A stretch of DNA of 29,429 nucleotides from a virus (taxonomy: Duplodnaviria > Heunggongvirae > Uroviricota > Caudoviricetes), in IMG/VR virus record IMGVR_UViG_2698536379_000013; one strand, written 5' to 3'. How positions within the stretch are numbered: position 1 is the first letter of the stretch; the number at the start of each line of letters is the position of its first letter. A program made the translations under genes and the position numbers. The notes beneath the pieces are model-generated. The model did no database searches. It was not told the origin of the DNA and worked only from the letters and a program-made list of their open reading frames with translations. Positions 13,169 through 26,401 of this stretch are shown one piece after another.

Positions 13169-14202
13169 TGGGAAAGAGTAAGAAGAACCGCGCTGCGGCG
13201 ACGAAACAGATCCAGCTTAAAAGTCAAACTACAGCCGAAGCATTCAGCTTCGGCGATCCCGTTCCTGTTCTGGACCGCCGAGAACTGCTGGATTATGTGG
13301 AATGCGTACAGATGGACCGCTGGTATGAGCCGCCCGTCAGCTTTGACGGACTGGCGCGCACCTTCCGCGCTGCCGTGCATCATAGTTCCCCGATTGCAGT
13401 AAAGTGCAACATTCTGACCAGCACCTACATCCCTCACCCGCTGCTCAGCCAGCAGGCTTTTTCGCGTTTTGTGCAGGACTATCTGGTTTTTGGTAACGCC
13501 TACCTGGAGAAACGCACGAACCGCTTCGGTGAAGTTATCGCCCTTGAGCCTGCACTGGCAAAATACACCCGACGCGGGTTAGACCTGGATACCTACTGGT
13601 TTGTGCAATACGGTATGACAACCCAGCCGTATCAGTTCACGAAAGGCAGCATTTTTCATCTGATGGAACCGGATATTAATCAGGAGATCTACGGCCTGCC
13701 CGGTTATCTTTCTGCCATTCCGTCAGCCCTGCTCAACGAGTCCGCCACGCTGTTCCGTCGCAAGTATTACATTAACGGCAGTCATGCGGGCTTTATCATG
13801 TACATGACCGATGCCGCGCAAAACCAGGAGGATGTGAACAACCTCCGCAATGCGATGAAAAGCGCCAAAGGTCCAGGCAACTTCCGCAACCTGTTTATGT
13901 ACTCGCCTAACGGCAAAAAAGACGGGCTTCAGATCATCCCATTGTCAGAAGTCGCGGCGAAGGATGAGTTTTTGAATATCAAAAATGTCAGCCGCGACGA
14001 CATGATGGCTGCGCACCGCGTGCCGCCGCAAATGATGGGGATTATGCCTAATAATGTTGGAGGGTTTGGGGATGTGGAGAAGGCCAGTCGCGTATTTGTA
14101 CGTAATGAATTAACGCCCTTGCAAAAAAGGCTACAAGAGCTGAACGACTGGCTGGGCGAAGAAGTGATTAAATTTACGCCCTATATTCTTTCAGAAGAAT
14201 AA
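13168..14202 (+). CDS. Portal protein (P2 gpQ-like)
   Basis: ATG 13168 overlaps the P stop (TGATG) with GGAGA SD; 344 aa in the conserved P-Q arrangement. Confidence 0.9.
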   Translation: MGKSKKNRAAATKQIQLKSQTTAEAFSFGDPVPVLDRRELLDYVECVQMDRWYEPPVSFDGLARTFRAAVHHSSPIAVKCNILTSTYIPHPLLSQQAFSRFVQDYLVFGNAYLEKRTNRFGEVIALEPALAKYTRRGLDLDTYWFVQYGMTTQPYQFTKGSIFHLMEPDINQEIYGLPGYLSAIPSALLNESATLFRRKYYINGSHAGFIMYMTDAAQNQEDVNNLRNAMKSAKGPGNFRNLFMYSPNGKKDGLQIIPLSEVAAKDEFLNIKNVSRDDMMAAHRVPPQMMGIMPNNVGGFGDVEKASRVFVRNELTPLQKRLQELNDWLGEEVIKFTPYILSEE

Positions 14203-14210
14203 TTCCGAAC

Positions 14211-14909
14211 TTATTTGTTTCTTCTTTGTTCACGCCTTGTCTTGGCTTCGATAAGGCGTTGAGGTTCAGTGTAAAGCCGTTCTAAAAAAAGATAGGTAAA
14301 ATCTTCAAGATCCTCAGCAGCAGCTTTATCCAAAATACCTTCATGCGCTCCATCATTTCCGTCATCTTTAACGCATTCAGCTAGTTCCCTTAAAGCTTCA
14401 GGCAGTAGATGATTATCAAATAACCACTCCATTCTTAACCCTAGGCTTCTCCTTATTTTTTGCGCAGGCCCTTGCTCCCCATCAGGAAGAAGTCCTTTTG
14501 TGGCATAATCAAGGCAAAGCCTAAACATGGTTGCTGCTGCATTATAACAACCTATAGCCAAACATTTCGCCCCTTCCTCATATGCACTATTGATATGCTC
14601 AGGTAAGAACTCTGGTGGCTCCTCTACTGCTAAGTCTGCCGGTGATATAGGCCTAACAACCTCTGCAACTTCCTTTAAGCCGAATATTCCACTTTCCCAA
14701 TTATAGCCATCTAAAGTTTTATTTTTCGTTAAAGGTCTGCAAAGAAACATTGTCGTTTTATGACACTCTCGGCAAACACAATAGACCTCGTACTCGTATG
14801 TTTTACCCCCGCCCAATGCATTGTAAACCCTAGTGCAATTCAGCCCATTAACATCAAACGCTATTTTTTGTGATCCACATCGTGGACAGTCATCCACTAA
14901 CATAACCAT
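14211..14909 (-). CDS. Hypothetical zinc-ribbon protein (cargo gene between portal gene and cos)
   Basis: 232 aa, ATG with AGGGAGGAG SD. N-terminal Cys cluster CPRCG...CVCRECH; C-terminal alpha-type region with GNDGAH motif, loosely reminiscent of DUF4145-type domains (recall only). AT-richer than flanking genes. Confidence 0.65.
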   Translation of the reverse strand: MVMLVDDCPRCGSQKIAFDVNGLNCTRVYNALGGGKTYEYEVYCVCRECHKTTMFLCRPLTKNKTLDGYNWESGIFGLKEVAEVVRPISPADLAVEEPPEFLPEHINSAYEEGAKCLAIGCYNAAATMFRLCLDYATKGLLPDGEQGPAQKIRRSLGLRMEWLFDNHLLPEALRELAECVKDDGNDGAHEGILDKAAAEDLEDFTYLFLERLYTEPQRLIEAKTRREQRRNK

Positions 14910-15019
14910 GTCAATTACTCCTCCCTATGAAAAAAATGAGTTGAAAAATTGAATATTCACGACTTAAAAAGCTAGCCTATTTAACACCATAATTTCATTA
15001 ATTCAACCATGAGCGCGCG

Positions 15020-15038
15020 CTCGTATCCCCGCCACGCC
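15020..15038 (-). other. Putative cos (cohesive end) site, P2/186-like
   Basis: Minus-strand GGCGTGGCGGGGAtacgag; first 13 nt match the recalled 186 cos overhang GGCGTGGCGGGGAAAGCAT. Adjacent perfect palindrome GAGCGCGCGCTC at 15011-15022. Confidence 0.4.
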
Positions 15039-15082
15039 TGCCCGCTTTATGTAGTGGTTTTCATGCGCCTGCATGACATAAG

Positions 15083-15107
15083 CAAAAGCCCGCCATTCCT
15101 AGCGGGC
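15083..15107 (-). terminator. Rho-independent terminator-like hairpin ending the SOS operon
   Basis: Stem gcccgc/gcgggc (15088-15093 and 15102-15107), 8-nt loop, followed on the minus strand by a T-run (A-run 15084-15087 on plus). Confidence 0.5.
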
Positions 15108-15198
15108 CTCAGCTAAAACGATCCTCAAACGATCATGCGGATTCATGCGGCATAGACATGCACAATCGCCAAAGCGGGCATCGAGACTTTTTGGAAAA

Positions 15199-15810
15199 CT
15201 ACGTAACCACAGTTAATGTGTGCATCCTGTCTCGAATTGCATCACACGTCTCATCAAAAAGCTTGGTGATGGTTGTACGGTTCAACTCTGCCTCTTTCCA
15301 ATAATTTTGCCAGTCAAATTCTGGATCGCCATGCTGAAACGATATTGACTCTGAAAGGCATTCCTTCCGGAAACGGTCCAAGATTATATAAACCTCTGGT
15401 GAGATGAACGGTTTGTTAGACTCAACACTTGTAACAAAAGTATTAAATGCATCGAAAAAAACTTTCAACCTTCTAAATTTTCTCTCTTCAAATGGTTCGT
15501 TGGGGTCAAAATGATCCAGCGCAGGCCTCAGCTTAAGCACGCTTTCTCTGGTTTCAAACATCGAATTCCAAATGAGACTATATGCTGATAACTCCTTATC
15601 AAAATACGCTTTCGTTACATAAACAGAATTGTCTAACTTAGCCTTTATTCTTTCATTAGTTGCACTCAGTTGTGATTGAAATTCAGCAATATCTTTGTTT
15701 AGCCGCGACTTATATCTTTCTAAATAAACTTTCCCGATCCAAACAAATATGCCAGATGCAACAAAAGACACCCCACCCAACGAAGCCAGAATTTTAAAGA
15801 CTAAATCCAT
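15199..15810 (-). CDS. Hypothetical membrane-anchored protein (SOS-operon cargo)
   Basis: 203 aa, ATG with AGGTGGGGG SD; N-terminal TM helix (ILASLGGVSFVASGIFVWIG) then soluble domain; AT-rich; last gene before the terminator. Confidence 0.65.
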   Translation of the reverse strand: MDLVFKILASLGGVSFVASGIFVWIGKVYLERYKSRLNKDIAEFQSQLSATNERIKAKLDNSVYVTKAYFDKELSAYSLIWNSMFETRESVLKLRPALDHFDPNEPFEERKFRRLKVFFDAFNTFVTSVESNKPFISPEVYIILDRFRKECLSESISFQHGDPEFDWQNYWKEAELNRTTITKLFDETCDAIRDRMHTLTVVT

Positions 15811-15858
15811 TGCGCCCCCACCTGCAAAAATAGTATTCCATTATAAGCTAATACATTT

Positions 15859-16119
15859 TTAATCAAACAGGGAATAATTCGCGTCAACCTCATCACTTCT
15901 CTGCTCTACCCTGGTGACTTCCATCAAAAACTCCAGGCCGTCATATAGCGAAACGGGGAATTCCAGCTCAAGCCAGAAGCAGTCTTCATAGGTGCGGCCC
16001 AACCAAAAACCTCCGCCACACTCCTTTGGGCGTTGAAAGAAGACCCAGCCGCCAGGGGTAAACCGTTCCAGCACCTGGCCCCGATAAATAATCTGGTGAT
16101 TACTGTCTTTTTTACCCAT
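15859..16119 (-). CDS. Hypothetical small protein
   Basis: 86 aa from ATG 16119 (MGKKDSNHQ...) with weak GAGG SD; the track version starts at TTG 16170. No recognisable motif. Confidence 0.5.
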   Translation of the reverse strand: MGKKDSNHQIIYRGQVLERFTPGGWVFFQRPKECGGGFWLGRTYEDCFWLELEFPVSLYDGLEFLMEVTRVEQRSDEVDANYSLFD

Positions 16120-16192
16120 GGCTAACGCCTCGCTACTCTCGTTGTTCAACCTTGCTGACGTCAGAATCAAGTTCTTACATCAGGAACGTTCC

Positions 16193-16426
16193 TTAGTGCA
16201 GCCAGCTGTCGTCTTCCCAAACCTGCTGCATAATTTCCATCACCCGCTTTTTGTCTTCATCAAGCTTTAAGCCACTCAGCTCAACGCCGTTTGCCGACCC
16301 TTTACGGATGCGGATAGCTGTCTTGGGATAGATGGGTTGCAGGTTGCGGTAAAGCTCTGACTCCAGAGCGTCCAGGGTAGACTGGCTAATCTTCTGCTCT
16401 TTATCGATCATTATTTCAATGCGCAT
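16193..16426 (-). CDS. DinI-like domain protein (possibly the C-terminal part of a Tum-like antirepressor)
   Basis: From ATG 16426 (MRIEIMIDK...) with GAGGTGA SD 5 nt upstream; resembles the DinI family (MRIEV...LSxELxRR...VSVR...QRISEILQETWE) by recall. Confidence 0.65.
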   Translation of the reverse strand: MRIEIMIDKEQKISQSTLDALESELYRNLQPIYPKTAIRIRKGSANGVELSGLKLDEDKKRVMEIMQQVWEDDSWLH

Positions 16427-16436
16427 AAAAGTCACC

Positions 16437-16625
16437 TCAGCTGATGACATCCATTGAGCGGTTGTATTCGTGGGTTCTGATTTTTGCCATGAGTTCATCT
16501 GTCAGTTCAGAAACCCACTGCAGGGCCAGCCCCTTCTCTTCATCACTACACTCACTAGCCGCTACAAGCTTAAGAAAAAAATCAATGCGCTGGAGCTTCA
16601 AAGACTCCAAAAAATAGTCCTGCAT
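16437..16625 (-). CDS. Tum-like SOS-inducible antirepressor, N-terminal ORF (frame differs from the DinI-like ORF)
   Basis: ATG 16625 with perfect AGGAGG SD; LexA box 43 bp upstream; 62-aa ORF overlapping the DinI-like ORF by 62 nt in another frame. Confidence 0.5.
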   Translation of the reverse strand: MQDYFLESLKLQRIDFFLKLVAASECSDEEKGLALQWVSELTDELMAKIRTHEYNRSMDVIS

Positions 16626-16667
16626 CTTTCCTCCTATGACACCAAAGCAACACTGTATACATAACCA

Positions 16668-16683
16668 CTGTTTATATTTACAG
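16668..16683. promoter_or_regulatory. LexA (SOS) box upstream of the tum-like operon
   Basis: caCTGTttatatttACAGta fits CTGT-N8-ACAG with an AT-rich spacer; a half-site CTGTATAC lies at 16653-16660. Confidence 0.7.
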
Positions 16684-16777
16684 TATATAATAATCTTACT
16701 GATGTAAAACGTTTTTTTACGCTCATCAGCCTGATATGCCTGGTATTATTAAGAGCACGAATTGTTAACCTGCGTAA

Positions 16778-19192
16778 TTAATACAGGTTCCGCCATTTAT
16801 CATCCTCCTGCAGACGCTGGTTCCGATAGAAGATACGCAGGCCTGCTCCTGACGGAATACTGCCGCCGCGAAGGAGTAAATCGACCTCTTTCTCGCTGCC
16901 ATCAAATCCTCTGGACTTCAGTTCATAGACGAGCTGCTGTCGCTGATGATCTGTAATTCGCTGTTTGTAGTCTTTACGCCGTTTCGGTTTAACCAGGCGT
17001 AACCTTGCTGCCAGTTCCCGGCGCTCTTTTTTGCTCATACTGTGCAGGTAATCGTGCAATTCCTTGTCATCCATGCGGGTGATTTCCGTTCTGGTATCCC
17101 CATCAGCTGATTTGTCTTTCCCTTGTTGGTTCAAATTTTCAGCAAGGGGACAGTTATTGCCACGAGTCCAAGGGGCGCAAGCGCCCTGGTCGGCTGCCGC
17201 CTCCTGAACGTCAACGGCCTTACGAACCATTTTCCACTTCACCGCATGAGTGCAGATCTTGCCCTCTGCAATGGGTGACCAGATGCCATAAATACGAATG
17301 CCGTGATCGCCATAGGCGGTCGGCTCTTCGTTGATTTCATAAGCGGTTCTGATCAGGTGATATTTGCGGGGAACCAGTACGCCGCCCTGCTTCATGATGT
17401 AGGTGGCAAAACAACCAGCATCAGCAGCAGCCAGGATTGCATCAAGGCGCGGGTTATCCAGTACCGGCGCACCTGCTTTTTTGTCCCCCTGTTGCCTTGC
17501 CGCCTGACCAGCCAGCAATCGCAGTTCACGGTAAGCCTGACGCCCCGGAATGCCAAAGAAGCGGAATTGCTGAACACGATGCAGAGACGCCCAGGCATTA
17601 ACGTATTCAGCATTATCACGCAGGGATTTCCCCGTTTCCTTGCTGATCTCGCCAGTCAGACCACGCCCGTCAATGTTCTTACTGATGTATTTCGCGATGT
17701 AGCTTGTTGGCGTACCTTTGCGCGGGTTAATCAACTCAGACTTAAAGCGCGGCCCAGTGTTATTGCCCAGCTCCTCGCGGTCTTCACGGATGGCAAACTT
17801 ACGCAGTAATGCAGTGATGGCGCGGCGGTCTTTTTTGCGCATAAAACACAACAGGTGCCAGTGAACTGTACCGTCATGATGCGGCTCAGCCACCCGCACG
17901 CCATACCAGCGCAATCCGGCTTTGTGCATCGCCTTACGAAATGCAGCAAACATGCCGACCAGATAATCACTACTTTGTCTTACCGTCGCATTTGTCCAGG
18001 TTGGGTTGGGCCTGCCGTTATTTAGCGTGGAATGGAAACGTGACGGACAGGTGATGGTGTAGAAAACGGCGCAGTCACCGCGCATTTCCGCGATAAGCTC
18101 CAGACCTTTAACACAGGCCATCATCTCATTGCGGCGATGCGCAGGGTTGCTGCTGCTGGCGTTTACCACATCCTCCATGTCCAGCGTGTCGCCGTCTTCG
18201 TTCACCAGTTCATGAGAACGGAAAAACTCCAGCGACTTACGGCGCTGCTCACGTTTATGCATCACGGCTTCATAGCTGACATAAGGAGATGCTTTTTTGC
18301 TAACCAGGCAGACAGCGCGCAACTGCTCCTCCCGCCATTCGCAACGCATCTTCCATAATTTCCGATACCACCAGTCGGCGCACAACATACGCGCCAGCGA
18401 ACCCGGAATGAGTTCATAGGGCACGGGTTTACGGCGGTTTCTTTTCCGGCGGAGTTGCTCAAACGCAGGTGGGATGACATCCAGACGCAGGGTTTCCGCC
18501 GCCACCCTTTCCCATGTCTTGCGGATTTCTTCTGGCTTAACGTCATCGGTGGCATACAAATCGCCACAAGCTGCATCAAGGCACATGCTCATATGCGCAG
18601 CAACAAGGGTGGACAGGCGTTTCACCTGATCCTGACTCATTTCAGGCAGAATCAGCAGGCCGTCCAGCCCTTCATGGCTTGCCATAAAGCGAAAAGAAGT
18701 GGATAGCTGACTGTCGCGTACATGCTCCAGCCGTTCCAGACATGGCTTAATCGTCTCACGTAAATAGCGGGAATAAGCCTTTGGCCTGCCCTGGCTGCTG
18801 AAGTATTCAATACGTTGCATCAGCGGCTTGCTGATATGGGAAGGCTGGGCGTTGACGTCCGCCAGAATGACCATATCCGGATTAAAACGCTGCTGCTCAT
18901 GCGCCAGCTTTGCCCGACTAATGAGCTTATCCTGTTCCATTTCGCGCTGGACAGGATCACGGGATTCATTAAAGAAATAACGCTCCCAGACCTGATCACT
19001 CAGTGCCTCGCGGCGCAGTTGTTCCTGCTCGTTATCGGCAGCGTACAGAGTGATCAGGTTTGAAAGCGCAGAAACCGGCGCAACTTCCGCCGGGTCCAGA
19101 TAAGGGTTAATGGCCTTTTTCGGGCTGTTCCATGAGAATGCTGCGGCGAACTCGTTAAAGCCGCTGCAGTTGTTCATATCAGCATGGCTCAT
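16778..19192 (-). CDS. Replication initiation endonuclease (P2 gpA-like rolling-circle initiator)
   Basis: Contains the conserved active-site tyrosine motif [13 protein letters not shown] and [11 protein letters not shown]. Start set to ATG 19192, which overlaps the Dam stop (ATGA); the track start at 19219 is TTG. Confidence 0.9.
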
Positions 19193-20046
19193 GCACGCAC
19201 TCCGTACACGACGGAACAATCCACGCCACGCGAAGGATCAAATCCTACCCAGCAGCGCGGCCCGGAAACAGCGATGATTTCTGTTGCAGATTTACTCTCA
19301 CCAGCTGCCACGCCGATGCTGCGTTTTGCCTTGATGTAGTGGTGAGTAAAATTGCGATACAGCGAACGGATCAGGGATGTGTCACTGTTAGAAACAATGA
19401 CCGGATGTCCTTCTGATGACCGATGTTCAAGAACGGATGCCAGGTGATACTGGTCATCTTCAGTGAAGCCGTCAGTGTGATAGCCGGAAAACATACCGTC
19501 ATAAGGCGGATCGCAATACACCACATCCCCCGCCTTCAACATCGCCAGCGTTTCATCAAAGCTGGCGCAGATAAACGTTGCCCGCTGGGCTTTCTCTGCA
19601 AATGCGCGAATTTCTTTTTCAGGGAAATACGGATTTTTATAATTACCGTACGGAATGTTGAAATGCCCGCTCTTGTTATAGCGACATAACCCACGGTAAC
19701 CATGACGATTGAGATACAGGAAATATACCGCTTTCATGAAATCAGTAATTTCAGTGGAGTAATTAAACTCCTGCCTTATGTTGTAATAAGCCACCTCCCT
19801 GTTTGCTTCCTCAAATAAAGCTCTGGCACGAGATATAAACGCCTCGCAATCAGCAGCAACCTTTTTATAGAGGTTGATTAAATCAGGATTAATATCCGCA
19901 ACAAGATAGCTGGGGTAATCCGTCTCCATCATCACAGCACAGGAACCCGCGAAAGGTTCAACCAGTCGCGGGCCAGCAGGAAGATGTTTTTTCAGTTCGG
20001 ACATAATGGCGGTTTTATTTCCCGCCCATTTCAGGATGGTACTCAT
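19189..20046 (-). CDS. dam: DNA adenine methyltransferase (Dam-like, orphan)
   Basis: From ATG 20046 ([11 protein letters not shown]...) with GGAGG SD; FAGSCAV SAM-binding and DPPY catalytic motifs; no adjacent restriction gene. Confidence 0.9.
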
Positions 20047-20270
20047 ACAACACCTCCGTTGTAATGTTTGCCTTTCAGCTCTGCGATTTCCTGACAGGTA
20101 ATGCAAAGCTGCACTCCAGGAATGGCGCGGCGTCGTGCTGGCGGAATTGGCGCTTCACATTCAATACAAAGCACACGAGACACGCCCGGTGTTTTGGCAC
20201 GGGCAGCACGGATATAGCGCTGGCGTTCTTCTTCAACGCGCTGCTGTACGAGATCCATTGCATCAGCCAT
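20043..20270 (-). CDS. TraR/DksA-type C4 zinc-finger protein
   Basis: 75 aa with CIECEAPI...CITCQ Cys4 pattern; stop overlaps the Dam ATG. Confidence 0.7.
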   Translation of the reverse strand: MADAMDLVQQRVEEERQRYIRAARAKTPGVSRVLCIECEAPIPPARRRAIPGVQLCITCQEIAELKGKHYNGGVV

Positions 20271-20503
20271 TAGTGGATCTCCTGCGCTTCGTTCTGGATT
20301 GCTTCAGCAGTCACACGCAGCAGTTCTGCCGCTTCCACGTGGTTTAGCTGACGGGATGAGATATGACACGCCAGGCTATCAAGGCGAGCTGCCATTGCTT
20401 CAGCCCTTGCCCGGCGTTCTTCCAGACGAGCCTCTGTCAGTAAAATATTAAGCCCTGCATCATCCGGTCCGGTTTTAGTCGTGAGGATTTCAATATTACG
20501 CAT
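20270..20503 (-). CDS. Hypothetical early-region protein
   Basis: 77 aa from ATG 20503 with AGGAG SD 8 nt upstream; stop overlaps the next ATG by 1 nt. Confidence 0.55.
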   Translation of the reverse strand: MRNIEILTTKTGPDDAGLNILLTEARLEERRARAEAMAARLDSLACHISSRQLNHVEAAELLRVTAEAIQNEAQEIH

Positions 20504-20570
20504 AATCAATTCTCCTGAATTTAGATAAAGGGATGCCCGGCGGGTTTACGCCATTAATTTCATTAGTTGG

Positions 20571-20912
20571 TTAATTCGGCATGGTTAGCCGTCTGGGAAA
20601 TAAGCTCACCACCGCACGAAAATGATTCATTGCTTTAATCAGCTCCCGCTTTTCGTCAGTGGTCAGCTCATTAATGCTGATGCTATGACGTTCAGCTGGA
20701 ATTTTTGCCATAAAGAATATAGCAGCCAGTGCCCGTTTATTTTGTTCATTATTGATATCCCGTGGATCACGCATATCTTTAATAAACCGCTCAAGCTCTG
20801 ACTCAATATTCAGGCCAAAAACTTTCGCCCTTAATTCCGCAATATGATTAAGTCCATTCAGGCGTTCACCGGGGCTTAATGGAACAGTCGCCGCAGCGCC
20901 ATTAATTGCCAT
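20571..20912 (-). CDS. Hypothetical early-region protein
   Basis: 113 aa, ATG start; in the early operon between the CII-proximal genes and the replication region. Confidence 0.5.
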   Translation of the reverse strand: MAINGAAATVPLSPGERLNGLNHIAELRAKVFGLNIESELERFIKDMRDPRDINNEQNKRALAAIFFMAKIPAERHSISINELTTDEKRELIKAMNHFRAVVSLFPRRLTMPN

Positions 20913-20934
20913 AATTCATATCCCCAAAACGCAA

Positions 20935-21159
20935 CTATCGTTCTTTGTTCTTACGGTAACGTTCAAGAGGAGATACATTTTTTCGTATCGTCTCTTTAAC
21001 CTGCTCTCCCCGTAAAAACGTCCCATCCTTTAGCGTGAAAAAGTAACTGCCATCGCCCGACAACGACGGATAACAACAGAGCAAATCATCTTCAGGTACT
21101 GAATAACTCTCCCCTCTGTAACGAAACTGATAAACCACTTCACTTTCCGCTGCATACAT
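20935..21159 (-). CDS. Hypothetical small protein
   Basis: 74 aa, ATG with GGAG SD 9 nt upstream. Confidence 0.5.
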   Translation of the reverse strand: MYAAESEVVYQFRYRGESYSVPEDDLLCCYPSLSGDGSYFFTLKDGTFLRGEQVKETIRKNVSPLERYRKNKER

Positions 21160-21326
21160 TTTGACTTTCTCCGTTTCCTCGTGGTCAATTCAGACAGCAA
21201 TTCATCTTGTGAATGACATGGATGCCAGCGTTTACCATCCTCACCCATGATCCAGCCGTGACCGTAGTGCATTGCCGGACTTTGTTTTACCAGCAGCGAT
21301 GCAAATGATGGTTCTTTCGTCAGCAT
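21030..21326 (-). CDS. Hypothetical ORF downstream of cII (overlaps the 74-aa ORF; may be a frame artefact)
   Basis: ATG 21326 with GAGGTG SD; N-terminal two-thirds look protein-like, C-terminal part is Cys/Arg-rich and overlaps the neighbouring ORF by 130 nt. Confidence 0.3.
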   Translation of the reverse strand: MLTKEPSFASLLVKQSPAMHYGHGWIMGEDGKRWHPCHSQDELLSELTTRKRRKSKCMQRKVKWFISFVTEGRVIQYLKMICSVVIRRCRAMAVTFSR

Positions 21327-21333
21327 AAGCACC

Positions 21334-21843
21334 TCACAGCAATCCGAATGAAGCACCGAGGCCAGTCACGGTATCAACTGCACTCGCCATCGCAGGGTTA
21401 GCCTGTAAACGGGCCTGCAATGAAACAGCAGCCAGCGCCATCAGTCGTGTTACAGAGTTAATGCTGCTGATAGCATCACGACGACCTGCACTGGTTTTTA
21501 CATCGCCAGATACCGCACCTGCAGCAACACGCCCGATCTCTGCGGTTGCACTCATGACGTAATGCGGCAGTTTCTCTTTTGCTACCTCATTAATCGGTAC
21601 ACATGGCAGGCAGTGAATCTGTGCCAGAAAACCATCTACCAGCGTTGAATCTTCAGTCAGATCGGTAAGCAGCCAGATTTCTGATGCGGTGAGCTGATGC
21701 GGTTGATCTGGGTTGAGTTTGTTTCGCAGTGTCTGAACATTCATTCCTGCACGTTCTGCCAGCTTCGCCATATTGTGACGTAGTGCAAAAGCTCTACAGG
21801 CTTCATCAAAATGCGGATGTTTGGAAATCTTGTAATCAAACAT
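21334..21843 (-). CDS. CII-like lysogeny establishment activator (186 CII-type)
   Basis: 169 aa, ATG start; strongly resembles recalled 186 CII (MFDYKISKHPHFDEACRAFALRHNMAKLAERAGMNVQTLRNKLNP...LVDGFLAQIHCLPC). Confidence 0.8.
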   Translation of the reverse strand: MFDYKISKHPHFDEACRAFALRHNMAKLAERAGMNVQTLRNKLNPDQPHQLTASEIWLLTDLTEDSTLVDGFLAQIHCLPCVPINEVAKEKLPHYVMSATAEIGRVAAGAVSGDVKTSAGRRDAISSINSVTRLMALAAVSLQARLQANPAMASAVDTVTGLGASFGLL

Positions 21844-21875
21844 GCTGCCCCCTTAGAAAGTTCTCATAATTGAAC

Positions 21876-22124
21876 TTAGTCACCAACGATGACATTAAAG
21901 TTGAAATTGGATTGGCCCATGTTTTTCCTGACTTGTTCCTTTTTGTACTCAAGGTAACGTATACATACTCTGTCTTTCGGTTTTTCTTTTCTTTCCAAGA
22001 ATTTAGCGAGTTTTCCATTATGAATCATTTGATATACCGAACCGCGAGAGCGGCCTTCCCATTCCGCGAACTCAGCTGGTGTCGCCATCACTTTTGGTAC
22101 ACGAATTGAAATGTCGTTGCTCAT
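21876..22124 (-). CDS. Apl/Cox-like excisionase-repressor (HTH)
   Basis: From ATG 22124 (MSNDISIRVPKVMATPAEFAEWEGRSRGSVYQMIHNGKL...), divergent from the repressor gene in the 186 apl position. Confidence 0.65.
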   Translation of the reverse strand: MSNDISIRVPKVMATPAEFAEWEGRSRGSVYQMIHNGKLAKFLERKEKPKDRVCIRYLEYKKEQVRKNMGQSNFNFNVIVGD

Positions 22125-22241
22125 AGTGCAGTATCTCTTAGTTTGTAATCGTATCATCTCGTTTTATGTGGTTTGGTTTTGCTTTTCAAACCATGAATGG
22201 ATATTAAGATCTCATTTTATATGCGTCAGGGGGGTTTGATT
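22125..22241. promoter_or_regulatory. Lysis-lysogeny switch intergenic region (apl/cI promoters and operators)
   Basis: 117-bp AT-rich region between divergent apl-like and cI-like genes; candidate plus-strand promoter TTGCTT(22179-22184)-17-TATTAA(22202-22207). Confidence 0.45.
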
Positions 22242-25074: not shown

Positions 25075-25171
25075 ACGTCTATTGTCGTCCAGTGAGAATT
25101 GCTGAGAACTACGAGTTATGGCACCCTGAATGAGACCCACTAAGAAGGGTCCAAAAACCGAGGGTCCCAAA

Positions 25172-26401
25172 ATGGCAAAAATCGCTAAGAAGCTCACTGA
25201 CACTGAAATCAAAAGCACCAAGCCAGCCGACAAAGAAATCAACTTGTTTGACGGAGATGGTTTGATACTACGAATCGCTCCCCTCTCGAAAGGAGGAAAG
25301 AAGAATTGGTATTTCAGGTATGCAGTGCCAGTGAGTAAAAAAAGAACCAAAATGAGCCTTGGGACCTATCCTCACCTTACACTGGCAAGAGCCAGAGCCT
25401 TACGTGATGAATATCTTTCCTTTCTGGCAAATGGTGTTGATCCACAAATCCATAACAACGATAAGGCGAAGGCATTAAAGAGTGCTACTGAGCACACTCT
25501 CCAAGCCGTAGCGCGGAAATGGTTAGATGAGAAGGTAAAGACATCAGGTATCTCACAAGACCATGCAGCAGACATCTGGCGCAGCTTAGAGAGAAATGTC
25601 TTTCCTGGTCTGGGTAATGTCCCTATCAATGAGATCCGGCCTAAGCTCTTAAAACAACACCTTGATCCTATTAAGCAACGAGGCGTATTGGAAACTCTAC
25701 GCCGTATCATTTCACGTCTGAATGAAATCTTCAGGTGGGCAGCTACTGAAGAACTTATTGAGTTCAACCCGGCTGACAACCTTGGTCAAAGATTCAGTAA
25801 ACCAAAAAAGCAAAATATGCCTGCCCTTCCCCCAAGCGAATTGCCAAGGTTTATGGAATCTTTGACGAATGCGTCAATCCGGTTGGAAACACGTATGCTA
25901 ATTGAATGGCAATTGTTGACATGGGTTCGTCCGGGTGAAGCCGTTCGCGCAAGATGGTCTGATATTGATACAACCAACAGCATTTGGAACATTCCTGCTG
26001 ATTTCATGAAAATGAAAAAGCCTCACAAAGTTCCTTTGAGTAAAGAAGCTTTGCGCATCCTTGAATTAATGAAATCAATAAGTGGGCATAGAGAATGGGT
26101 TTTCCCCAGCATTAAAGCGCCTCTTAATCATATGCATGAACAAACAGCCAACGCAGCTATCATCCGAATGGGGTTCGGAGGCGAGCTTGTAGCTCACGGT
26201 ATGCGTTCTATTGCGCGAACAGCGGCAGAGGAGTCTGGTAAATTCAGAGCTGAAGTTCTTGAGGCAGCGCTTGCCCACTCGAAAAAAGATGAAATTATCG
26301 CAGCATACAATCGTGCAGAATATCTGATAGAGCGACAGAGTTTGATGCAATGGTGGAGTGATTACGTTCAAGCTCAAAGATCAAATGCTCTGGTAGCCTA
26401 A
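25172..26401 (+). CDS. intA: Tyrosine integrase, IntA (CP4-57)-like
   Basis: From ATG 25172 (MAKIAKKLTDTEIK...) with GAGGG SD; resembles recalled E. coli IntA (LTDTEIK, DIWRSLERNVFP, ALETLRR, AALAH, MQWW). Confidence 0.85.
   Translation: MAKIAKKLTDTEIKSTKPADKEINLFDGDGLILRIAPLSKGGKKNWYFRYAVPVSKKRTKMSLGTYPHLTLARARALRDEYLSFLANGVDPQIHNNDKAKALKSATEHTLQAVARKWLDEKVKTSGISQDHAADIWRSLERNVFPGLGNVPINEIRPKLLKQHLDPIKQRGVLETLRRIISRLNEIFRWAATEELIEFNPADNLGQRFSKPKKQNMPALPPSELPRFMESLTNASIRLETRMLIEWQLLTWVRPGEAVRARWSDIDTTNSIWNIPADFMKMKKPHKVPLSKEALRILELMKSISGHREWVFPSIKAPLNHMHEQTANAAIIRMGFGGELVAHGMRSIARTAAEESGKFRAEVLEAALAHSKKDEIIAAYNRAEYLIERQSLMQWWSDYVQAQRSNALVA

Follow-up and report, generated by a model that had tools for sequence, protein, structure and literature searches.

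An SOS operon and a separately expressed moron between gene A and cos of a Cartapus-like prophage

We analyzed a 29,429-nucleotide (nt) stretch of viral DNA (IMG/VR record IMGVR_UViG_2698536379_000013; hereafter, the window), concentrating on the interval between replication gene A (gpA; 19219..16778) and cos. The features of this interval lie on the minus strand. Downstream of gpA are four open reading frames (ORFs): tum-like orf62, a DinI-like gene, orf86, encoding 86 amino acids (aa), and AT-rich orf203, encoding 203 aa with one transmembrane (TM) helix. They are closed by a terminator (15083-15107) just before cos. The original prediction, made from the sequence by eye, had proposed this arrangement, and every element was where it had been placed. 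In the reading that we favor, with moderate confidence, the interval contains two head-to-tail transcription units, an SOS operon and an orf203 moron whose product, more tentatively, would be protective at the membrane.

The region corresponds to Escherichia phage Cartapus, a P2/186/Fels-2-like prophage of the adherent-invasive, Crohn's-associated E. coli LF82, with 99.9-100% identity across the locus. Overall, the window is approximately 97% identical to LF82, and by this comparison it is a prophage related to Cartapus and separate from LF82 itself. Since positions 14100-16900 differ from LF82 at a single base, within the DinI-like gene, published LF82 data apply to the window sequence.

The SOS operon

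The 20-mer TACTGTAAATATAAACAGTG (16685..16666) agrees with the LexA consensus TACTGTATATATATACAGTA at 17 of 20 positions, a match reached in 0 of 100 shuffles. Its first six bases form the -10 hexamer TACTGT (16685..16680), and a -35 hexamer, TTTACA (16708..16703), can be read from the sequence 17 nt before it. The design is that of phage 186, in which the SOS-dependent promoter p95 (TTCACA-18-TACTGT) and its LexA site are followed by tum, the partial terminator t95a, orf97, the terminator t95b, and cos (NC_001317; Brumby et al., 1996). The core CTGT-N8-ACAG (16683..16668) is the sole such site in the window and is weak by itself (0.35 matches expected; at least one in 27 of 100 shuffles). However, the full box overlaps the -10 hexamer as at the annotated 186 LexA site and, in 27 of 29 related loci (Enterobacter prophages with diverged flanks among them), precedes the first ATG by 60-67 nt. 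The TTTACA-17-TACTGT layout also recurs in diverged Enterobacter prophages. The 17/20 match, the 186-like overlap, and the conserved position together make the LexA box convincing. A simple promoter scan listed neither this promoter nor the candidate orf203 promoter described below. A Shine-Dalgarno sequence, AGGAGG (16635..16630), lies 4 nt before the ATG at 16625. Thus, the consensus LexA box and strong Shine-Dalgarno sequence originally noted ahead of the tum-like ORF are both present, and the box overlaps the -10 hexamer of a promoter built like p95.

The first two genes appear to encode a Tum antirepressor split in two. orf62 (16625..16437; 62 aa), the predicted N-terminal antirepressor half, belongs to phrog_698 (E 3.6e-38), an unnamed family, and aligns weakly with residues 1-45 of 186 Tum (19% identity). 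After a 10-nt gap, the DinI-like gene (16426..16193; 77 aa; phrog_189) encodes the counterpart of the C-terminal half of 186 Tum, to which it is 43% identical. With a PF06183 match of 86 bits (cut-off 24; E 2e-24), its predicted identity is unambiguous. The tum-like reading of orf62 was already known; judged by position, phrog_698 membership, and the literature on Fels-2 and PSP3, its assignment as the Tum N-terminal half looks sound. Both of those phages are described as carrying tum in the form of two genes, of which the upstream one specifies the antirepressor (Bunny et al., 2002, as cited in Lemire et al., 2011; PMC3121763). The CI repressor of the window is of the 186 type, with PF07022 and PF16452 and without the self-cleaving S24 peptidase domain, so an antirepressor route to induction is expected. 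CII and Fil are likewise 186-like.

To follow expression, we used RNA sequencing (RNA-seq) of LF82 (GSE154648) as re-analyzed by Misson et al. (2023), who give mean values for each Cartapus gene as log2(fpkm+5) (fpkm, fragments per kilobase per million), a scale with a floor of 2.32. Two samples are defined in the text: BLB, a stationary culture in lysogeny broth (LB), and MB6, bacteria in macrophages for 6 h. The meaning of B1 and B6 (bacteria only) and of MB1 was read from the sample names, and fold changes were calculated from the tabulated values. In the order BLB, B1, B6, MB1, and MB6, orf62 was at 4.4, 5.5, 4.4, 9.9, and 10.9; the DinI-like gene at 3.0, 4.4, 3.7, 7.9, and 9.2; and orf86 at 3.2, 3.4, 2.7, 5.0, and 7.6. 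gpA remained at background (2.5-2.9) in all five samples. From bacteria-only to intramacrophage samples, these values correspond to rises of approximately 90-fold for orf62, 47-fold for the DinI-like gene, and 30-fold for orf86. In the same data, sulA, chromosomal dinI, umuD, and umuC were raised in MB1 and MB6 only, and the source paper of the RNA-seq reports the SOS response among the induced pathways. Transcription of orf62 begins downstream of gpA, follows the SOS regulon, and declines through the DinI-like gene into orf86. Taken with the promoter architecture, LexA-type control of these three genes is strongly supported. DNA damage would remove LexA from the box overlapping the -10 hexamer, the orf62 antirepressor half and the DinI-like protein would then be made, and transcription would run on at falling levels into orf86. 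The prediction that both genes downstream of the DinI-like gene are co-induced by DNA damage found indirect support for orf86, which rose with sulA, dinI, and umuDC, and was not supported for orf203, which is not driven mainly by the LexA promoter (8.6 in B6, compared to 2.7 for orf86).

Directly 3' of the DinI-like gene, in the 73-nt gap before orf86, is a conserved element (16190..16120) consisting of a hairpin (16190..16148) followed by the invariant GGTTGAACAACGAG (16151..16138) and GCGAGGCGTTAGCC (16133..16120). The hairpin has an 18-bp stem in which seven pairs are kept through two-sided changes among five phage sequences. It has no U-tract, and no Rfam family matched within 14000-17000. 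In LF82, RNA levels fall 3- to 8-fold across the element; it may serve in RNA processing or attenuation, or it may be a boundary for recombination. Phage 813R9 carries no cargo ahead of cos, and there the element is joined directly to the sequence that lies downstream of orf203 in the window. Thus, orf86 and orf203 form an insertion between the hairpin element and the pre-cos sequence, and the element marks the left boundary of the inserted cargo.

orf86 (16119..15859; phrog_2100), which is followed by a 48-nt gap, encodes a small accessory protein co-induced with the SOS genes. Its structure was modeled with a mean predicted local distance difference test score (pLDDT) of 83 and had no significant structural neighbor, and no PADLOC-DB 2.0 profile matched at E<=0.1. 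One homologue carries the label 'DUF2829' in its source record, a label that found no support in Pfam scans of 46 family members. The family also occurs in the ea region of P22-like phages and in SSU5-type phage-plasmids, there without orf203. orf86 is intact in the window, but most relatives with orf203 have it as a pseudogene (loci L007-L010, L026-L035, and L037-L041). When orf86 was translated from 16 E. coli-type viral contigs, nine had a stop at codon 15 and a tenth had lost the start codon. The Enterobacter lineage has a deletion of the DinI gene, and its orf86 retains neither the start codon nor the reading frame. orf86 would thus be a small accessory passenger of the SOS operon that has decayed in most relatives.

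Expression and mobility of orf203

orf203 (15810..15199; phrog_26391) has a G+C content of 38.6%, compared to 48.7% for the window. A candidate promoter read from the sequence, TTGATT-15 nt-TATAAT (15866..15840; TATAAT at 15845..15840), spans the 3' end of orf86 and the gap before orf203. Downstream is an untranslated stretch (15198..15083) that, by folding and conservation, ends in an intrinsic terminator hairpin (15107..15083), the positional counterpart of 186 t95b. The G+C-rich stem pairs 15107-15102 with 15093-15088 and precedes TTTTGCTT; folding gave the predicted hairpin.

The LF82 values for orf203 (5.5, 7.2, 8.6, 9.0, and 10.5, in the order given above) follow those of the CI repressor (5.0, 8.3, 8.1, 9.3, and 8.1) in four of five conditions, as expected of a constitutive lysogenic gene. 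In B6, orf203 was abundant while orf86 was near the scale floor and orf62 was at only 4.4. Abundant orf203 RNA with the upstream neighbors at the floor means that the gene is transcribed from a promoter of its own and is active in the lysogen without stress. Conversion of the MB6 log values gives approximately 190 fpkm for orf86 and 1470 for orf203, so at most about 13% of orf203 transcripts in this sample can come from upstream.

The gene also moves with its flanks. The cassette comprises orf203, approximately 110-150 nt upstream (the TATAAT block and the 3' end of orf86), and approximately 110 nt downstream (the hairpin). It is conserved in Enterobacter P2-like prophages, where DinI is absent and orf86 is not intact, as well as in an island beside smpB in E. 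cloacae; in these prophages and in this non-P2 island, the promoter block reads TTGATT-15-TATACT. orf203 was intact in every locus examined, and the ratio of nonsynonymous to synonymous substitution rates (dN/dS) against the Enterobacter copy was 0.13. LF82_789, which is orf203, is listed by Misson et al. as one of two Cartapus morons (PMC9928086). Thus, both separate constitutive expression and the cassette nature of orf203 are strongly supported. The second unit would be a self-contained moron, with a terminator of its own and a promoter that lies within the 3' end of orf86 or immediately beyond it. Foreign in base composition, it would be expressed constitutively in the lysogen, roughly with CI, and would rise a further approximately fourfold in macrophages.

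The E. cloacae copy (GCA_025535535.1; locus L011, 4876-5720) lies beside smpB and outside any P2-like prophage. The last 25 codons of orf86 remain upstream, and P2-type pre-cos untranslated sequence with the hairpin remains downstream. Since the orf86 remnant and pre-cos sequence are retained, this cassette was probably captured from a P2-like phage.

The cos cohesive end, GGCGTGGCGGGGATACGAG (15037..15019), lies approximately 46 nt past the terminator U-tract. It equals the annotated 186 cos at 14 of 19 positions, including the first 13, and the bases just before it equal the 186 right end. Past cos is a gene for a 232-aa DUF4145 protein with a zinc ribbon (14909..14211; PF13643, E 4.5e-7), and the portal gene lies beyond. 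The DUF4145 protein weakly matches the defense system PD-T7-4 (E 1.2e-6). Its gene is expressed in the lysogen (4.7, 7.1, 7.6, 9.2, and 9.6), with a profile near that of orf203. In relatives, genes for AIPR, a retron-type reverse transcriptase, or an OLD-like ATPase occupy this slot. Elsewhere in the window, a DUF5347 gene (20571-20912) is intact that is annotated as frameshifted in LF82, and a second tyrosine integrase gene (25130-26401; 423 aa) shortly past the prophage integrase suggests an adjacent integrative element.

The orf203 protein and its possible role

Only one segment of the orf203 protein is hydrophobic, at residues ~3-26 (Kyte-Doolittle maximum of 2.0 over 19 residues, and at most 0.6 past residue 60), and 96 of 100 aligned family members have a hydrophobic N-terminal segment. 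The 19 residues after this anchor contain five K/R and three D/E; since basic residues follow the anchor, the remainder of the protein is placed in the cytoplasm. The AlphaFold2 model (pLDDT 93.4) has a long helix (2-60; anchor and stalk) and a four-helix bundle (67-198). Together, these features strongly support a predicted architecture in which orf203 is anchored in the inner membrane with its bundle in the cytoplasm. We considered a four-helix-bundle sensor domain of the chemoreceptor/histidine-kinase type. Such domains are periplasmic, lie between two TM helices, and are coupled to a signaling domain. The orf203 protein does not fit this class; by the positive-inside rule its bundle is cytoplasmic.

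An exhaustive profile-free search recovered 764 cluster representatives of the family at E<=0.001, of which 271 reach E<=1e-10. Among the best 150 of the 764, almost every protein is 180-240 aa long. E73, P134, and R195 are invariant, and W81, L94, R95, P96, F135, E154, I192, and R193 are kept in at least 90% of members. Foldseek against viral models gave nothing at E<=0.001, and a single-protein scan of species-representative genomes gave no relative. When 100 family members were scanned with PADLOC, matches were scattered and weak, with no family in more than three members. Homologues adjoin the CI repressor of Pseudomonas phage Riah; occur in a prophage that has SieB two genes downstream and a DUF2971 gene beyond; and directly follow hsdR in a Clostridium type I restriction-modification island that also encodes an AAA_15 ATPase and a PIN protein. 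Others follow an AlpA-type regulator or occur in an element with a Prim-Pol gene. These contexts lean toward accessory or defense settings, though not exclusively.

In the favored reading, orf203 would protect the lysogen at the inner membrane by superinfection exclusion or abortive infection, like Orf97 in the same slot of 186, the annotation of which states that 'expression from plasmid blocks 186 infection' (NC_001317). That orf203 acts against superinfecting phage at this site is a tentative proposal, drawn from its position, the analogy to Orf97, and the neighbors of its homologues. A stronger version, in which orf203 founds a new single-gene family of membrane-anchored anti-phage or exclusion proteins with basal expression topped up by read-through from the LexA promoter, seems unlikely. 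If this were true, cargo directly behind tum/dinI in hotspots of the P2 type would provide prophage-encoded immunity with a layer that DNA damage boosts.

Alternatively, all four genes could be transcribed from the LexA promoter, making the cargo a DNA-damage-coupled defense or toxin module. The genes lie on one strand with short gaps and no strong terminator between them, orf203 rises approximately fourfold in macrophages, where SOS genes are on, and in 186 transcription from p95 reaches orf97 by passing through a partial terminator. However, the B6 values and the small share of orf203 transcripts in MB6 that orf86 levels can account for make such an operon quite unlikely. The DUF4145 gene, which lies past both terminator and cos, rises by the same factor as orf203, so the macrophage rise of orf203 need not come from the LexA promoter. 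Further, the TATAAT-bearing upstream block accompanies orf203 into a non-P2 island, and the decay of orf86 in relatives argues against a two-gene module. The same decay bears on whether orf86 and orf203 are a toxin-antitoxin or sensor-effector pair, which we regard as very improbable, although the two are adjacent in every P2-type locus found and a remnant of orf86 persists beside orf203 even in the smpB island. orf86 has decayed in most E. coli-type loci and in the Enterobacter lineage and is down to 25 codons in the island; its family occurs alone in P22-like and SSU5-like phages; and LF82 samples express orf203 without orf86. Since orf203 is intact where orf86 has decayed, it can do without orf86, which excludes a toxin-antitoxin pair. 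The suggestion that the slot holds a toxin-like module made of these two genes is thus contradicted.

The main functional rival to a protective role is that orf203 is a host-fitness moron, modulating envelope or stress physiology to benefit the host in macrophages or the gut. Expression of orf203 peaks in macrophages and rises in bacteria-only medium compared to LB, some homologues are in non-mobile chromosomal contexts that include a cysD-cysN operon, the closest folds are sensor-type four-helix bundles, and no defense family matched. We consider this role somewhat unlikely, since the bundle is cytoplasmic, unlike periplasmic sensor domains, the hotspot is one in which tested cargo is mostly anti-phage, and relatives lie near SieB, CI, and restriction-modification genes. 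In addition, the LF82 supplements contained no transposon sequencing or CRISPR interference values or phenotype for these genes.

Several observations count against two units with a protective orf203. For the SOS operon, ciprofloxacin did not raise Cartapus virions in LF82 (means 3.3e5 without drug and 2.1e5 with drug), and the early lytic genes gpA, dam, cII, and apl-like (16778-22157 in the window) were at background in macrophages, although orf62 was strongly expressed there. The RNA-seq values are counts per gene and come from infected macrophages, rather than from a lexA mutant or from cells exposed to a clean SOS inducer. For orf203, the promoter is a candidate whose position is deduced from expression and conservation and whose spacer is short (15 nt). 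The protein matched nothing in Pfam, NCBIfam, or PADLOC-DB 2.0 (PADLOC E<=0.1), PHROGs gave only the unnamed phrog_26391, and a sequence profile search of the PDB returned nothing below E 0.09. Its fold matches are generic helical bundles, the closest being of the sensor type. Homology to 186 Orf97 was rejected (BLASTP E 37), as only position and an N-terminal hydrophobic region are in common. Lastly, homologues with ~30% identity lie between cysD and cysN of a sulfate-assimilation operon in two related peat-metagenome lineages (loci L013-L019), and others are among ordinary chromosomal or metabolic genes.

Since virions were not raised and early lytic genes were silent despite orf62 expression, the antirepressor function stays predicted in Cartapus. 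The split antirepressor seems insufficient for induction under the LF82 conditions examined, in agreement with the negative score for 'SOS induced' given to Cartapus in published LF82 data (Table S3). The tum gene of Salmonella prophage BTP5 is reported to behave comparably. That a Tum-type operon is induced in LF82 without prophage induction raises the question of how the split antirepressor works in these phages.

Relation to known systems

Rousset et al. (2022) and Vassallo et al. (2022) described the cos-proximal interval between gpA and gpQ of P2-like phages as a defense hotspot, and the slot had been correctly equated with the old/tin position. Table S5A of Rousset et al. (2022) catalogs this gene order (hypothetical, DinI, hypothetical, hypothetical, DUF4145) with identical protein accessions. 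A main-text search found no paper naming the four protein accessions and no experiment on anti-phage activity of these proteins, and the terms LexA, SOS, and DinI do not occur in the main text of Rousset et al. (2022) or of a 2026 Nucleic Acids Research paper on the hotspot. Related phages retain the LexA box, orf62, and DinI, followed by other cargo (e.g., TIR proteins) or none. Like other occupants of this hotspot, the cargo of the window lies between gpA and gpQ by cos and varies among related phages. Unlike them, orf203 matches no known or candidate defense family in PADLOC and was not found among the tested systems.

As the regulatory design and genomic slot are textbook for 186/P2-type phages, the locus adds little there. 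Its interest lies mainly in the widespread orf203 family and in the idea of an SOS input to hotspot cargo behind tum/dinI, which is directly testable with existing strains. With a large unnamed family, a confident model, and expression data in a Crohn's-associated strain, orf203 is a ready candidate for a phage-resistance screen.

A classical moron, as defined by Hendrix and Juhala, is a promoter, a gene, and a terminator inserted between conserved genes. orf203 resembles such morons in its deviating composition, lysogen expression, own terminator, and movement as a cassette between contexts, and differs in that its promoter is deduced from expression and conservation. As in Fels-2 and PSP3, a small upstream gene and a separate DinI homologue lie under a LexA box in a phage with a 186-type CI. 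In contrast to those phages, the antirepressor role is predicted here, and strong induction of the LF82 operon brings neither early lytic transcription nor a rise in virions.

The closest parallel is 186 itself. In both phages, the site is between gene A and cos, a LexA box covers the -10 hexamer TACTGT, coding sequence for an antirepressor (predicted here) and a DinI-like part comes first, a membrane-protein gene is next on the same strand, and a terminator lies just before cos. Extra genes after Tum are thus not a new design, since the 186 SOS operon already carries orf97. The differences are that Tum appears split here, the cargo is unrelated to Orf97, the last gene depends mainly on a promoter of its own and not on read-through, and the hairpin element, which follows orf97 in 186, precedes the cargo. 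With its regulatory design, slot, and split tum all already known, the locus is a 186-type SOS operon joined to a hotspot moron.

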